From: Octopus sinensis
Lineage: Eukaryota
Reading direction: 5' to 3'
DNA: 64,000 bases
NCBI RefSeq assembly: GCF_006345805.1
Contig: NC_043006.1
Coordinates: 90,210,001-90,274,000 of the forward strand
Below the pieces are notes generated by a model. It did not search any database. It saw only the letters and a program-made list of their open reading frames with translations, and had not been told where the DNA came from. Each line of letters starts with the position of its first letter. Within the stretch, counting starts at the first letter, position 1. A program made the translations under genes and the position numbers. Shown in pieces: positions 3,194-61,176 of this stretch.

Positions 3194-3235
3194 TATTCAA
3201 ACCGGTTTTCGTCATAGTTTGACTTATCAAGAATA
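3194..3235 (-). ncRNA. minimal type I hammerhead ribozyme, U3-A8 core variant
   Basis: Minus strand TATTC-TTGATAA-GTCA aacta TGAC-GAAAACCGGTTT-GAATA: stem I 5 bp, stem II 4 bp, palindromic stem III AACCGGTT, cleavage triplet UUU; sense to PLE1 and followed by AATAAA. Confidence 0.72.
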
Positions 3236-3867
3236 GCTAGGTGAAAAGATTTTTTAAAAATGAGAAAGGGGAAAAAAAGTTGCATTGTTTTTTGCAAAAG
3301 AATAATAGTAGTAAATATGTATAAAAATTAAAAAATAAGTACTCCGATACATTGTGAGTTCGTTGTGTATCTTGAGTTTAATGATTGTTCATGAAAAAAT
3401 TACCTTGAGGTATTAGGATCCAATGGGATTAAGGCCATGTGTTGTTTGGTTTAATTTAGGATGTTGGCAAAAACAGGAAGTAGTAGTAATTGTGGTTCTT
3501 CAGTTCCTGTGTTGTGAACAAGGGGAGACAACTCTTTTGAGTTCTTCAATAAAAGCTGCTGATAAACCCAAATTATAAAATTGTCATTTTAGCTTCATTT
3601 GCATTATCTTTTTTATATAATTGTTTGTTAATTTAACTTTCAGATTTTAACATTTTATTTATATTATTTTCTAATTATATAAATTTGCATAGACAATTGC
3701 ATTTCAGATTGTTATATCTTAAATAATAAAGATGATGGTAATAACAACAATAGTAGAAATGATATTTAAAGAGTATAAGTTTTTGCTTGAAGTGATGAAT
3801 CTATGGTATCCTTATATATTTGTGTGAGTCCATCCATGAAGAATGAGGTAGAAAAAGGGAAGTTTGA

Positions 3868-5952
3868 TCAACGAGGGGTTTGTATATTAAGTTGTGTTTG
3901 GAATTTTTCAATAAAGAGATTCTCCTTGTTAATTCTCTCCTGTGTGGTGATGCCGTCTTTACATTGGTAGAAAGGGAATATATAGAATTTGGGGTTTAAG
4001 TCTTTAGCGCATGAGTCTATGTGGCCACTCAGTGGAATTTGTCGGTATTCTGGGAGATTTATTTGTTCTTTATGCACCGCTACTCGTTTACGTAACGGGA
4101 GACTCGTTTGTCCAACATAATTATGTTGGCAACCAGCGCATGTGAGAACGTAGATAAGGTTCTCGGAGGAACAGGAGAAGTTAGTCTTGATTTTAAACTT
4201 CGTACCTTGTTTGAAGGTAAATTCAGAACCTTCAAGTAGGAGAGGGCATGTCCCACAGTTTGGGCATGCACATTTTTTTACTGTTGGGGGTGGATGTGGT
4301 GTGTGAAGTTTGGCATTTGTCAAGAGTTTTTTTAAAGATTTGTGTTGCCTTTTACATTTGAGGATTTTGTGTGTATTTATAATGTTTTTCATTTTGGGGT
4401 CTGTTGACAGTAGACTGAGGTTTTGTATGATTGTGGTGTATGCTTCGATATTTTTGGGGTTGTGGGTGGAAATGTATGGAAGTATTTTGAGGTTGTGTGT
4501 GGTGTTAGGTTGGGTAGTTTTCAGTGTAATGTTATCTAGTTCTTTGGCGCGTTTTATTCCATACTCTATAAGGGTGGAGGGATATTGGCGTTGTAATAGT
4601 GTTTTTTTGAGGTCTTGAAGGCGTATTTCTCGTGTTTTTGGATCCGAGACAATGGTGCATACCCTTTTAGCCAAATTGAAAGGGATATTTGTCTTGGTGT
4701 GTTTTGGGTGGCATGAACTAAAGAGGAGGTATTGTTGTGAGTCTGTGGGTTTGTGGTGGATGTCTGTTATGATTTGGTTCTTAGGTGTTTTATAATTAGG
4801 AGATCAGGAAAGGTAGATGATGTTTGCTTATTCCATAGTGAATTGGATGTTGGGATGTATGTTGTTTAGTATGGTTTTGAATTCCAGGAGTTTTTCATAA
4901 GGTTCTTTCCATATGATGAAACAATCATCCAAATACCTTTTCCAGTTTTCCTTTAGGTAGGTGTGGAAAACATGTCCAAATTTCTGGTGTGTTATTTCAT
5001 AGAGTGATAGTTCAAAGAAACCCATTATGAGGTTCGCAAGGACTGGTGCAGCCTTGGTACCCATCGCAATACCACATTTTTGACGGTAGTGTGTGTCGTC
5101 GAAGAGAAAAAAATTGTTGGTCAGAATGAACTTCAGAGATTCTGTAATAAAAGTCTTGTTAATGCGGTCAGGGAATGTCTCTGGGTGTTTTTCTAGCCAG
5201 AAGTCAATTGCCTCTATACCATACTCATGTGGGATGTTGATGACATCAAAGGATACCAGGAGCGCCTCCTCGTTAACTGTTTTCGGGAGGTGTTTGAGCA
5301 TGTCCAGATCATCCCTAATGAAACTTTTGATGTGGGTAAGGAAAGGTTTCAAAAGGATGTCTAGGAAATTACTCAGGCGGTGTGTTTCACAGGAGGTGCC
5401 AGCCACGATGGGCCTTAGTTTTAGGTCCTCCGGTGCTTTGATGTTGATGTGTATGTCAGTGGCGAGTTTGCAGGCTTCGGTGATGTATTTGTTTTTATGG
5501 ATTTTAGGAAGGCCATAAAAAAGGCTGGGCTTGCATTTGAAATTGGTGATATAATCCCTTTCTTTTTCTGTGAGTCCCTGACCGTGTTGGCGTATGAGTG
5601 TGGTGAGGTTTCTGATTGTTTTTTGCTGTTTATAGTTGTTAATAACCTCATAGAAACTGTTATTGTTAAGCATGGAAAGCACTAGGTGTTTATAAAATTC
5701 CGTGTCCATAAGGACCACAGCGCTCCCTTTATCAGCTTCTTTAATGGTAAGGTTTTTATCCAGTTGTATGTCACGTAGGTTTTTCCATTCTTCCTTACTG
5801 AAATTGGATTTTACCTTGGTTTTGCTTGGGGTAAAGGGGGGACTCTGGATGTGTTTGCAAAAATCGTCCAGTGTTTTATTTCTCCCTTTTGATGGTAGGA
5901 AGTTGCTTTTATTTCTGATCAATGAATCGTCCCCATTGTTGATATCTGACAA
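3868..5952 (-). pseudogene. PLE reverse transcriptase + GIY-YIG endonuclease (disrupted)
   Basis: ADKGSAVV, YGLPKIHK, LRPIV, GIAMGTKAAP, RYLDD, HKPTDSQQYLLFSSCHP, CPNCGTC, NLIYVLTC..YVGQT..LRKR..H..E..LN. ORFs 4828-5952 and 3868-4674 share a frame and are separated by two stops near 4800-4830; motif A reads FDVINIP, lacking the usual LYT residues. Confidence 0.9.
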
Positions 5953-6749
5953 GGCTTCTGTTAGACGAAGTTTTCTGCAGAATTCAGAAATGTCATCCTT
6001 GGGGTGGGTGTGAATTTCAAACCTCTTGCTAGGATGTTGATTTGGGTTGGTGTCAGTGTTTTGCTGGAGAGGTTTATAATTTTTGTTTTCATATTTTGGG
6101 TCTGTGTTAGCGGTGGTGTTTGTATTTTTCCCCTCTGTCTAAAAAATGGTTGTTGAGGTAAGGGGTGTATTGTCTGTTAAAGTTCTGGTTGTATGTGTAG
6201 GGGTGTTTTTGGGTGGGGAGGTTGGAGGGGGGTAGGTAGTTGTAGTATTTATGTTGGTATGGGATGCGATGGTGTAAGGTTTTGTGAGAAATGCGATGGG
6301 TTTGTGGGTGTGTGTATGGTAGATTGTATGGGGGGATGTAGTTGTGGTGATTGGGTTCGTGTGGGATGTGAGGGTTTGGAGATCTGTAGGAAATGTGGTA
6401 GGAATGTGGTTGTTGGATGGGTGGACTATAAGGGGTTCGTTGGGTGGGTATTATATGTATCGGTGTGGGTAGGATGCCTTGTTTGTTATTAGTGTGAGGG
6501 AGGGGAGTATTGAGGGGGGGGATAATTCCTAGTGTATGGGAGGTTCTTGATGGTTCTTGTCGGTGGGGGAGGGGTGTTAGAGTGACTGGAAAACCAGGTT
6601 TTGTGGTGGGTCTTGTTTGAGATGTTTCGGGGAGGATAAAGTTTTTTATATGGTTGGGGGAGGTTGTGTCCTATTAGGAGGGGGACATATATATGTATAT
6701 ATACATACATATATATATATATATATACATATATATACATATATATACA

Positions 6750-59494: not shown

Positions 59495-60530
59495 TTCAAA
59501 ATAATTTAATTCCATTGATTTCCTGTAAAGAGGTTTCAATAACATTTTATTACATTAATGATAAAGTCACACACAATTCTTAAAAAAGCAAAAAAAAACA
59601 TAAACAAGGAGATCTGAAGTCTTTGTTTTGTAAAAGTTGGGTTTTTTTTTTTTCCTTTTGGCAAAAAGAAACACAAGCAAAATCCAAACAATGGAATGTC
59701 CTTCTAAAGACAAACAACAACAAGAAACCAACAGACTTCCTCTACTAATAAAACAACCTGAAAAATGTGGAATTCTCTCTTTGTTTCATTTCACTCGGTT
59801 TGCTTTATTAACTCCAGGAGTAGATAATTTAATGCAGTGAATCGTGTAAAACACAAAATATATTTTTCTCATATGGCTCAAAGTATGACTAAGAGCTCTC
59901 CCTCTCTCTCTATCTCTCTCTGTTCAGAAAGAATGATGATGATGATGATATATATATATATATATTTATATATGCATAAACAAACATGTAAACATATATA
60001 TATATTAACAAGTACACACAGACACACACATATATGTATGTATATTATTTATCCTGCGAAGATGTGAACAGAAGAATAATTGAAATAAGATCCAGCCTGC
60101 TTGTTTTCCAGTGTGAACTGGTGTAGAACACACAATGAACATTGCTAAAAGGAAGCTATCCTACTGGACAAGACAAAGAAGTTTGACAGCCAGAATGGTT
60201 TTCTTTGAATAGATTAAAGACACAAAGCAAATATGTAAACAAACAAATAGATAATAAATAATGGTAAAGAAAATATGAAATGTAGCTGAATTCTCAGACA
60301 GCTGTGCTAAAAGAACTGGAACAGAAACAAACATAAATGATGTAACACTGATACATGGAACTTTCTAGATCAGATTTATCTGATAGCTTCACTTTATGTG
60401 TGTGTGCATGTATACATTTACACACACACACACACACACACACACACACATATATATATATATATATATAAAACATTATTGGTGAATTGAAGAAATGGAG
60501 CTGAACGCAGATTGAACAGAAATCGTTTTA

Positions 60531-60619
60531 TTTCATTCTACACGTGTTTCGAAAGGCACAAATTACCAAAATCCGATTGAATAATGGGACCATATTGTGT
60601 CTTTCTCTTCAGGAAGAAA
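60531..60619 (-). ncRNA. type I hammerhead ribozyme (copy 1)
   Basis: Minus strand TTTCtTTC-like stem I, CTGAAGA, GAAAGaCACAA..TTGTGcCTTTC, GAAACACGTGTA, GAATGAAA; canonical core with G10.1-C11.1, palindromic stem III ACACGTGT, GUA site. Confidence 0.78.
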
Positions 60620-61087
60620 AAAGGAAATCCGCTGGAAAAACAAAAACAGAACAGAGGCTGAGCAAAAACAAATCGAACTATGCTCCTAAGAGCCCATGGC
60701 GAAACTGTTTATCCGCACCAACGCACGGTTGCAACGCCAGATGGTTGTACCTCCAACCGTGCTGTTTACTGCTGTGATTTTTGCTACTAAGGTATCGGTT
60801 AACTTTTGATTAATCTACTACAAGATTATTCATCTTTCTATTTCACATAATATATATATATATATATATATATATTATATATATATATATATATTACATA
60901 CACATATATATATGTATACACACACACACACATATATGTACACACACACACATATATATATATATATATATATATATATATACACATATATGCACACACA
61001 CACCACATATATATATATATATATATAAAACATTATTGGTGAATTGAAGAAATGGAGCTGAACGCAGATTGAACAGAAATCGTTTTA

Positions 61088-61176
61088 TTTCATTCTACAC
61101 GTGTTTCGAAAGGCACAAATTACCAAAATCCGATTGAATAATGGGACCATATTGTGTCTTTCTCTTCAGGAAGAAA
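61088..61176 (-). ncRNA. type I hammerhead ribozyme (copy 2)
   Basis: Duplicate of 60531-60619. Confidence 0.75.

Follow-up and report, generated by a model that had tools for sequence, protein, structure and literature searches.

Hammerhead motifs of eight families in a 64-kb Octopus sinensis locus: probable PLE 3′ ends and a retrozyme with a PLE signature

Introduction

Within one stretch of the Octopus sinensis genome, several hammerhead folds with unrelated stems lie close together, raising the question of whether they are independent self-cleaving RNAs or parts of larger mobile elements. The window, meaning the whole 64-kb stretch analyzed here, was described in an earlier note as holding about seven hammerhead families, all but two of them small non-coding mobile RNAs. 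Families are named here by their start position (F3, F7, F9, F19, F20, F35, F41, and F60). The reading that we regard as very probable is that seven of the eight are 5′-truncated or folded-back 3′ ends (pseudo-LTRs, pLTRs) of protein-coding Penelope-like elements (PLEs), and that the eighth, F19, consists of non-coding 365-nt tandem units for which a PLE enzyme is the likely copying machinery.

Hammerhead motifs in the window and the genome

A type I hammerhead descriptor allowing a C3-G8 or U3-A8 core, with stem I of at least 3 and stem II of at least 4, gave eight matches in the window, six of them with a perfectly palindromic stem III. In 60 local dinucleotide shuffles of the window the mean was 0.05 matches (maximum 1), none with a palindromic stem III, and a slightly looser descriptor again gave eight matches against a mean of 0.1 (maximum 1) in 40 shuffles. 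Rfam reported no hammerhead among the 150 of 385 window matches listed, those 150 being microsatellite noise, as would be expected if the folds were chance matches. However, given the shuffled controls and the finding that every match belongs to a multicopy family and lies at an element end, the chance reading is refuted.

The five families previously described as intact were recovered as type I folds at 3194-3235 (−), 7565-7615 (+), 9343-9420 (−) with 12486-12563 (+), 19753-19796 (+), and 60531-60619 (−) with 61088-61176 (−), while the sites called degenerate, at 20200 and 41427, proved to be decayed copies of real hammerhead families. The multiplicity of families thus stands, and their number becomes eight rather than seven because a further hammerhead at 35190-35280 (+) had been overlooked. 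The proposal of unrelated stems built on one geometry is also borne out: each family has the core and three stems with an open stem I, F20 with a doubtful core variant, and the eight have no alignable sequence in common except one 21-nt low-complexity match. Stem III, said to be mostly palindromic, is self-complementary in all eight families, with predicted self-duplexes of −1.7 to −12.8 kcal/mol. Within-family covariation is near nil (F19 shows changes on both sides in 2 of 972 cells, F41 in 4 of 1,104), the copies being too alike or decaying; this is expected of young or neutrally decaying copies and lends no support. Self-cleavage of all eight motifs is a prediction; F7 may act as a monomer, the others are expected to require dimers or protein, and F3 and F20 are expected to be weak.

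Across genome stretches sampled at even intervals and totaling 400 kb, the descriptor found seven independent loci (nine matches), against a mean of 1.2 in 10 shuffles. The window has six independent loci per 64 kb and is therefore about five times richer than average in loci of the same kind. If the 400-kb sample holds, a rough extrapolation gives on the order of 50,000 hammerhead motifs genome-wide.

Linkage of the families to PLE coding regions

The proposed link between these hammerheads and PLEs is supported by ORF-bearing genomic copies, known for seven of the eight families. An RT followed by a C-terminal GIY-YIG endonuclease lies upstream of the hammerhead in F3, F7, F35, F41, and F60; the coding evidence is an endonuclease only for F9, and an endonuclease plus an RT fragment for F20. 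The RT catalytic aspartates of the first five align with one another and with two database relatives carrying RVT_1 or GIY-YIG. A point against the PLE reading is that Pfam gave no RVT_1 match in the three RT-bearing Hydra-like frames (F7, F35, and F60). Judged by their motifs, F7, F9, F20, F35, and F60 appear Hydra-like, F3 Neptune-like, and F41 Poseidon-like. Further PLE hallmarks are pLTRs, an inverted truncated copy, and a tail at one end, together with (TA)n flanks in seven families and inverted arms of which only one bears the tail.

The idea that all but two families are non-coding mobile RNAs survives for F19 only. F7, F20, F35, F41, and F60 are each 3′-terminal in an RT and GIY-YIG coding element elsewhere in the genome, and their window copies seem non-coding only because they are 5′-truncated or folded back. 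That most families are independent small self-cleaving RNAs borrowing PLE enzymes is, in our judgment, very improbable. Such a reading holds for F19, and it could draw on the sharp 5′ edge of F41 and on the short copies of F7, F20, F35, and F41, which are far commoner than ORF-bearing ones. Against it stand not only the ORF-bearing copies themselves, which already refute it for the most part, but also the 91-100% identity of the window copies to the 3′ ends of those copies (compared for F20, F35, and F60). In addition, the 5′ ends of F20 and F35 are scattered and fade gradually, which is what truncation predicts, and short and ORF-linked copies of F41 differ at no convincing diagnostic column (one CpG site and two weak ones excepted). 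Non-autonomous sub-lineages may also exist in some of the seven families and would escape samples of 12-30 loci.

As to mechanism, the work on an Anolis PLE (Frangieh et al., 2024; PMC11167929) suggests that the RT-endonuclease protein would nick AT-rich DNA, and that reverse transcription would start downstream of the hammerhead at either of two sites, so that some ends would have the tail and others would lack it. Early stops in copying would be usual, leaving most insertions with just the ribozyme-bearing end, and the self-complementary stem IIIs could allow two motifs to pair, so that multimeric RNA might be cleaved as dimers.

Minimal type I hammerheads in PLE pLTRs are known to occur as several unrelated families per genome, with U3-A8 cores, opposite-strand pairs, and mostly single truncated copies (Cervera and de la Pena, 2014; PMC4209133). 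The window families resemble them in these respects, as well as in an extra base after position 9 and in the palindromic stem III, and differ in that several have stem II loops of 35-55 nt; cephalopods are not named in the accessible portion of that paper. Hammerheads in truncated PLE ends are thus mostly a known kind of thing, and the dense hammerhead clusters of this genome mark PLE debris from many families. Two points are of note, namely F19 with its PLE signature and the tRNA-like segment in the F41 PLE.

Neptune-like and Hydra-like families

The F3 hammerhead (3194-3235, −), with a U3-A8 core, a palindromic stem III, and a UUU triplet, lies in the 3′ UTR of a Neptune-like PLE. The coding region of this PLE (3868-6138, −) consists of two frames, an RT at 4828-6138 and a GIY-YIG endonuclease at 3868-4803, which match Pfam RVT_1 (E = 6e-4) and GIY-YIG (E = 4e-4), both below the curated cut-off. 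At 15 of the 24 other loci matched by the F3 endonuclease, the hammerhead is linked as well. A UUU triplet is unfavorable for hammerheads, as is a C at core position 4.

The latter base occurs in the F20 family. F20 is represented by a truncated PLE 3′ end at 20165-20483 (−), 91% identical to the genomic copy L344, with a variant hammerhead at 20200-20262. Of 30 copies, 28 keep GAAA intact, and core position 4 is C in 25 of 30 copies picked for their likeness to the window copy; the activity of F20 is doubtful because of this C in the family core. In 7 of 30 loci, the same strand codes for an endonuclease farther upstream.

The F7 insertion (7412-7625, +) is a fold-back of an inverted and a direct arm with (TA)n on both sides. 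Its direct arm carries the hammerhead at 7565-7615 (+), and its inverted arm has a tail of about 70 nt and a hammerhead that is 5 nt short in stem II. No ORF linkage was seen inside 1.5 kb at the first 30 loci. The 3′ UTR is about 2.7 kb long and microsatellite-like, and among 10 stretches chosen for long upstream sequence, copy L229 has a 628-aa frame on the same strand as the hammerhead, to which the frame of L227 is 92% identical. F7 was also considered as a foldback mini-element, since all of the first 30 matches were folded back; this reflected query bias, and longer copies have the ORF.

F9 is a PLE at 9310-12596 bounded by inverted repeat arms (9310-9633 and 12272-12596; 98.5% identity), each with one hammerhead (9343-9420, −, and 12486-12563, +). 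Between the arms lies part of an endonuclease (11308-11937, −), which has a CxCX5C linker. L226 is a relative.

F35 is a truncated PLE 3′ end at 34814-35459 (+) with the hammerhead at 35190-35280. It is 97% identical over 646 nt to the full-length copy L343, which is laid out as pLTR, RT, endonuclease, and pLTR plus an inverted pLTR, with the pLTRs 4.6 kb apart. The endonuclease lies 1.2-1.5 kb upstream in 5 of 30 loci. The F60 3′ end (60477-61399, −) is present twice, with an inverted tail and a 237-nt truncated arm. Its two hammerheads (60531-60619 and 61088-61176, both −) arose by a local 557-bp duplication; a retrozyme dimer was ruled out for this pair, which counts as one insertion because the duplication takes in the flanking microsatellite. 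With an independent query, an endonuclease was found 0.6-0.9 kb upstream in 7 of 12 F60 loci, and copy L346 has a 720-aa frame for RT and endonuclease.

These five families resemble the Hydra-clade PLEs (Craig et al., 2021; PMC8557442) in their (TA)n flanks, hammerheads, inverted copy, and tail. Inspection by eye showed neither CxxC nor CCHH in the five endonucleases, and the CxCX5C linker of that clade in four of the five (F7, F9, F20, and F35), F60 being without the linker cysteines. DKT replaces DKG, also as in that clade, in F35 and F60, the two families read that far. Hydra-clade PLEs tend to be under 3 kb, with tails of 30-40 nt (PMC8557442); in contrast, the pLTR spacing of F35 and the 3′ UTR of F7 point to longer elements, and tails here measure about 60-130 nt.

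F19, a retrozyme with a PLE signature

F19 spans 19412-19968 (+) and consists of an inverted piece (unit 232-365) followed by direct unit 256-365 joined head-to-tail to unit 1-309, with the hammerhead at 19753-19796 (+). The unit measures 365 nt, has 41% G+C and one type I hammerhead, and contains no ORF; 25 of 30 copies read TTGACAA, which makes the family core U3-A8, and the window copy has private changes. Seventy loci were read, of at least 128 exact copies. Unit starts follow directly on a unit end in 29 of 32 cases and on an ORF in none, two sites separated by 58 nt account for 60 of the 71 free 3′ ends, and both orientations are present at 25 of 40 loci. No PLE ORF was contiguous with F19 at any locus of two sets (0/30 and 0/40), four bystander matches lying apart; an ORF-bearing partner could be rare.

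F19 is a true head-to-tail retrozyme with a PLE signature: its 3′ ends fall at two sites, copies occur inverted, and (TA)n lies at the flanks. It is unlikely that F19 is instead a locally amplified satellite, or a solo pLTR whose parent PLE escaped detection, spread by duplication at the DNA level: tandems of two to three units do occur, but F19 is scattered across no fewer than 25 large contigs. Its copies also vary in where they begin, end at either of two fixed 3′ positions, and have inverted arms and flanking (TA)n, all of which speaks against such an origin.

Non-LTR retrozymes of animals are head-to-tail units of 170-400 nt with one type I hammerhead each and a G+C content below 45% (Cervera and de la Pena, 2020, PMC7229834; Li, Clavereau and Pollet, 2026, bioRxiv 10.64898/2026.07.22.740005). 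F19 resembles these retrozymes in its tandem unit, low G+C, absence of an ORF, and proposed PLE origin. As far as their accessible text goes, both papers argue from co-occurrence and pLTR similarity, whereas in F19, known here from DNA and having a U3-A8 core, the PLE tail and inverted-arm signature are seen directly. If this reading is true, the two-site tail would be direct structural evidence of retrozyme spread by PLE enzymes. F19 renders the proposed partnership directly testable, because its two 3′ ends predict PLE RT start points, near unit positions 307 and 365; a GUC is its predicted cleavage site. The predicted partner is a Neptune-like PLE, since two Neptune-like families have the same short-stem form with a U3-A8 core.

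F41, a Poseidon-like PLE with a tRNA-like segment

The F41 arm at 41370-41613 (−) starts at a tRNA-like head (about 41609-41537, −; A box near 41602-41592, B box at 41559-41548) and continues through (AAT)n into the hammerhead at 41426-41471, which has a private G5A change. Its inverted partner arm (41617-41779, +) has the full tail and a hammerhead at 41644-41689 with a broken core. The genome holds more than 5,000 copies, and of the first 100 genomic matches, 95 have an intact family core. The F41 RT and endonuclease end immediately upstream of the head, placing the A/B-box segment between stop codon and ribozyme. The head is identical to the genome's tRNA-Arg(TCT) at 48 of 77 columns (z 6.5); the tRNA parent is unsettled because tRNA-Ala scores nearly as well.

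Short F41 copies share their 3′ end with the autonomous partner, and their 5′ end falls at the head edge in 26 of 30 copies picked on that segment and in 12 of 14 in a second sample. On the strength of the sequence pattern, this sharp edge suggests that the PLE harbors a short RNA made by polymerase III. We give roughly an even chance to the step in which the internal tRNA-like promoter would yield a short RNA copied by the same PLE enzyme. The full reading, to which we assign slightly less than even odds, is that the F41 PLE captured a tRNA-derived polymerase III promoter in its pLTR, upstream of the hammerhead, and so acquired a built-in SINE: each copy would give a SINE-like RNA of about 250 nt, copied in trans by the PLE enzyme into thousands of short insertions, with the F19 retrozyme and its two-site tail beside it.

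Equally plausible, at a little under one chance in two, is that the edge reflects an RT stop or snap-back at a 12-nt palindrome upstream, or cleavage of the PLE RNA there, with the tRNA-like segment as a passenger. The PLE has this palindrome at the edge, about a third of short copies fold back there (by eye), and the short copies form no separate lineage. ARAGORN, which found no tRNA in the window, called one in 2 of 30 F41 copies with relaxed scoring, and Rfam gave neither tRNA nor hammerhead for F41. RNA reads are abundant and equal on both strands, with no pile of molecule starts or ends; they come from a fragmented cDNA library of a related or the same species, ill suited to the purpose, and are read as host read-through. 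However, the end of many copies falls 2-4 nt ahead of tRNA position 1 without any fold-back, and a T4 terminator occurs in none of nine full bodies on the sense strand and in six of nine on the opposite strand. As for cleavage, loss of the cloverleaf from a segment whose A and B boxes retain their tRNA spacing would argue against RNase P.

F41 resembles the Anolis Poseidon PLE, PAc, in its Poseidon-type RT and endonuclease motifs, minimal hammerhead, and tail on one arm, and differs in its tRNA-like segment, none being mentioned for PAc in the accessible text (PMC11167929). Schistosome SINE-like hammerhead repeats are likewise short and have a promoter of the polymerase III type ahead of the hammerhead (PMC6765202). 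Those repeats are described as tandem and free-standing, whereas F41 has its promoter-like segment within an autonomous PLE, and its short copies occur singly or as inverted pairs. If the captured-promoter reading is true, PLEs, like LINEs, would be carriers of tRNA-headed short elements, and F41 would outline a route from an autonomous PLE to the schistosome repeats. No paper on a PLE-borne tRNA-headed SINE or on cephalopod PLE hammerheads was found in the open-licence literature, Repbase and SINEBase entries aside.

Ohshima and Okada are said to have described octopus tRNA-derived retroposons in 1994. Like F41, these are octopod elements with a tRNA-derived head; F41 may belong among them, which would make it less new. 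OR2 is named as a CORE SINE (PMC4758252).

Seventeen G5A cores among window-like matches had raised the candidate of a ribozyme-dead F41 sub-lineage, which was rejected when only 3 of the first 100 unbiased matches had this change. A second, shorter remnant of an F41 3′ end lies at 33376-33526.

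Hammerhead Families in the Window

A descriptor search for type I hammerheads finds eight matches in the window, against a mean of 0.05 and a maximum of one per shuffle in 60 block-wise dinucleotide shuffles, which confirms the observation of the earlier note. The seven intact sites of that note are all recovered; its count of about seven unrelated families rises to eight, since it had overlooked a match at 35190-35280 (+; F35, families being named after window position in kb). Its observation of palindromic third stems is borne out: although the descriptor permitted rather than demanded a palindromic stem III, the stem is perfectly palindromic in six of the eight matches and in no shuffle match. 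Stem III forms a self-duplex in all eight families, and a monomer hairpin fold only in F7. Family alignments reveal a U3-A8 core in F3 and F19, a UUU triplet in F3, and mostly C at core position 4 in F20; as they stand in the window, F19, F20, and F41 bear private damage. Hammerhead cores are broken in several window copies, and most window copies are dead ends.

The genome comprises 2.72 Gb, in which microsatellites and retroelement debris are plentiful. Forty evenly spaced 10-kb stretches yield nine descriptor matches at seven loci (shuffle mean 1.2, n = 10), one locus belonging to F60 and six to further families. With six independent hammerhead loci, the window is about fivefold richer than this sample; (TA)n runs are also commoner (104 vs. 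68 per 64 kb). Three of the six further families (400 kb of unselected sequence; loci L312, L324, L333, L335) have U3-A8, and L324 holds a Neptune-like Penelope-like element (PLE) flanked by one inverted hammerhead pair.

Linkage to Penelope-Like Elements

All families except F9 were searched for in the genome (1,236-2,559 first-look candidates, 40 scored per search), and the flanks of genomic copies were screened with PLE protein pieces. That only two families lie in coding PLEs, as first claimed, is true of the window (F3 and F9), but with genomic copies included, seven of the eight are linked to ORFs. In F60, 7 of 12 loci (the 12 include the window's own two copies) have an upstream endonuclease that shares 41% identity with the F9 enzyme, and L346 carries a 720-aa reverse transcriptase (RT)-endonuclease frame. 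For F35, 7 of 30 loci have a PLE protein match, five upstream at the expected distance and two unrelated; L343 contains a complete element, with pseudo-LTRs (pLTRs) and GIY-YIG endonuclease (EN) in the order pLTR-RT-EN-pLTR plus an inverted pLTR. F20 has matches in 8 of 30 loci, seven of them upstream on the same strand. The endonuclease end was reached in 1 of 30 F41 loci; with this piece as query, nearly all of 30 loci continue through a tRNA-like segment to the hammerhead, and several have the RT upstream. The RT catalytic aspartates align across F3, F7, F35, F41, and F60. The best named relatives of one RT are from Argonauta and Octopus, which points to an octopod host. Next to PLE copies, L345:1482-2534 and L346:157-1590 hold open frames of 351 and 478 aa, which we take to be a Tc1/mariner-like transposase and a LINE RT, respectively.

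For F7, the protein screen links none of the first 30 loci to an ORF at distances up to 1.5 kb, since the 3′ UTR of the element is long and microsatellite-like. Among 10 longer stretches picked for long upstream sequence, L229 carries a 628-aa frame in the same orientation as the hammerhead, the inverted arm of L227 a frame 92% identical to it, and L226 a frame fragment. The F7 3′ UTR (L229, L230), ~2.7 kb long, is built from degenerate (TA)/(TG) repeats and contains conserved anchors; part of what looks like microsatellite in this genome is therefore PLE 3′ UTR. Across F7 loci L043-L072, hammerhead and tail hardly vary, unlike the 10-15 nt directly upstream of stem I, which differ among sub-families.

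Judged by eye on the motifs in Craig et al. (2021; PMC8557442), F7, F9, F20, F35, and F60 appear to be Hydra-like PLEs, F3 Neptune-like, and F41 Poseidon-like. The insertion pattern described there, with 5′ truncation, an inverted truncated copy, and a tail on one arm only (PMC8557442), is present in all seven PLE families. (TA)n adjoins seven families in the window, F41 being without it. Seven of the eight families are thus PLE ends. The earlier proposal of small non-coding RNAs holds for one family, F19, and gives way for the other seven, which are ends of protein-coding PLEs.

The F19 Retrozyme

The F19 unit measures 365 nt (41% G+C), and one 29-mer of it has 128 exact copies in the genome. 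Forty loci were drawn from the 29-mer list, five for unusual spacing and 35 in list order, skipping copies from earlier samples. A unit end precedes 29 of 32 unit starts, unrelated flank the other three, and both orientations occur in 25 of the 40 loci. No PLE ORF is contiguous with the element in any of the 40; the three PLE matches all lie apart from it. Free 3′ ends (n = 71) gather at unit positions 300-312 (29) and 358-365 (31). In an Anolis PLE, the sequence from one RT start site to the other makes up the tail, a trait called unique to PLEs (PMC11167929). F19 thus has the make-up of a non-LTR retrozyme, with head-to-tail units and no ORF, and is likely moved by a PLE. Retrozymes have been proposed as PLE dependants (PMC7229834; bioRxiv 10.64898/2026.07.22.740005).

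The tRNA-Like Head of F41

Between stop codon and hammerhead, F41 has a 73-nt tRNA-like segment, the head, followed by an (AAT)n tract. The head agrees with the genome's tRNA-Arg(TCT) at 48 of 77 columns (z 6.5) and with tRNA-Ala almost as closely; the A and B boxes are retained, the cloverleaf is lost. A 28-nt hammerhead pattern is matched exactly at 5,068 places in the genome, and a 34-mer within the head at 582. Most of the first 30 head matches (26) stop no more than 25 nt upstream of the anchor, 18 of them in the interval from 7 nt ahead of tRNA position 1 to 2 nt beyond it, while the remaining four run on into the PLE. In the window, the arm begins 4 nt ahead of position 1. In an independent, hammerhead-picked 30, scored by eye with four near-identical copies counted as one, 12 extend only as far as the 5′ edge of the head, two run on, nine break off within the (AAT)n tract, and four stop elsewhere. 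At most 6 of 17 (F35) and 4 of 13 (F20) at-risk copies end within any 25 nt.

Several observations count against a free SINE. Short and long copies are not told apart by any diagnostic bases, stops could arise from a palindrome located at the edge, and RNA reads (three runs, one study) fall equally on the two strands, their depth stepping at the head but with no pile of molecule starts. A sense-strand T4 run occurs in none of nine full bodies. We give polymerase III initiation at the head, a putative promoter, about even chances. Its order has a known precedent in schistosome repeats, where a polymerase III promoter precedes the hammerhead (PMC6765202, a review). Among the open-licence papers searched, none was listed on cephalopod PLE hammerheads or on an autonomous PLE with an internal tRNA-like promoter.

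Known Systems and Mechanism

Cervera and de la Peña (2014; PMC4209133) had already described genomes with numerous unrelated families of minimal hammerheads, including U3-A8 cores, pairs on opposite strands, and copies that are single and truncated, the picture also seen in the octopus window. The families add to known kinds, with one candidate variant among them.

Our sequence analysis shows anatomy, ORF linkage, and end distributions. The Anolis PLE nicks AT-rich DNA and primes internally at two sites; its hammerhead cleavage is protein-assisted and dispensable for insertion in vitro (PMC11167929). By analogy, the octopus enzyme would nick AT-rich DNA and prime internally at two sites, and predicted hammerhead cleavage would follow the same steps as in the published systems. 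Dimers of minimal PLE hammerheads have low activity (PMC4209133), and only one of nine Xenopus retrozyme dimers cleaved (bioRxiv 10.64898/2026.07.22.740005).

Other Repeats of the Window

Pfam detects LINE copies with RT and a PHD-finger-like domain at 13473-16033, 28282-28581, 35707-36427, and 42294-42959, some inverted, 85-91% identical and presumably RTE-like. An RT-bearing LINE fragment lies at 17639-19420 (-; RVT_1, E = 3e-18), and zinc knuckle, AP endonuclease, RT, and zf-RVT pieces at 55464-59062 (-) form a broken LINE that we assume to be L1/Tx1-like. A short repeat of very high abundance, which contains internal tandem units of 61-66 bp and has an (ATG)n end, occupies 496-832, 6750-7301, 12788-13116, 16165-16465, 17002-17335, 27643-28019, 35469-35613, 36633-36903, 41922-42249, and 44984-45264. 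Two more short interspersed families (1439-1824, 8991-9177, 12633-12790, 20481-20871, 21571-21974) often adjoin each other. An assembly gap (100 N) lies at 24127-24226 and a minisatellite (19 copies of a 19-bp unit) at 39308-39676. Two local duplications, 42996-43540 with 43662-44205 and 60447-60866 with 61004-61423 (99.3% and 100% identity), have microsatellite at their borders and are either recent tandem duplications or assembly artefacts.
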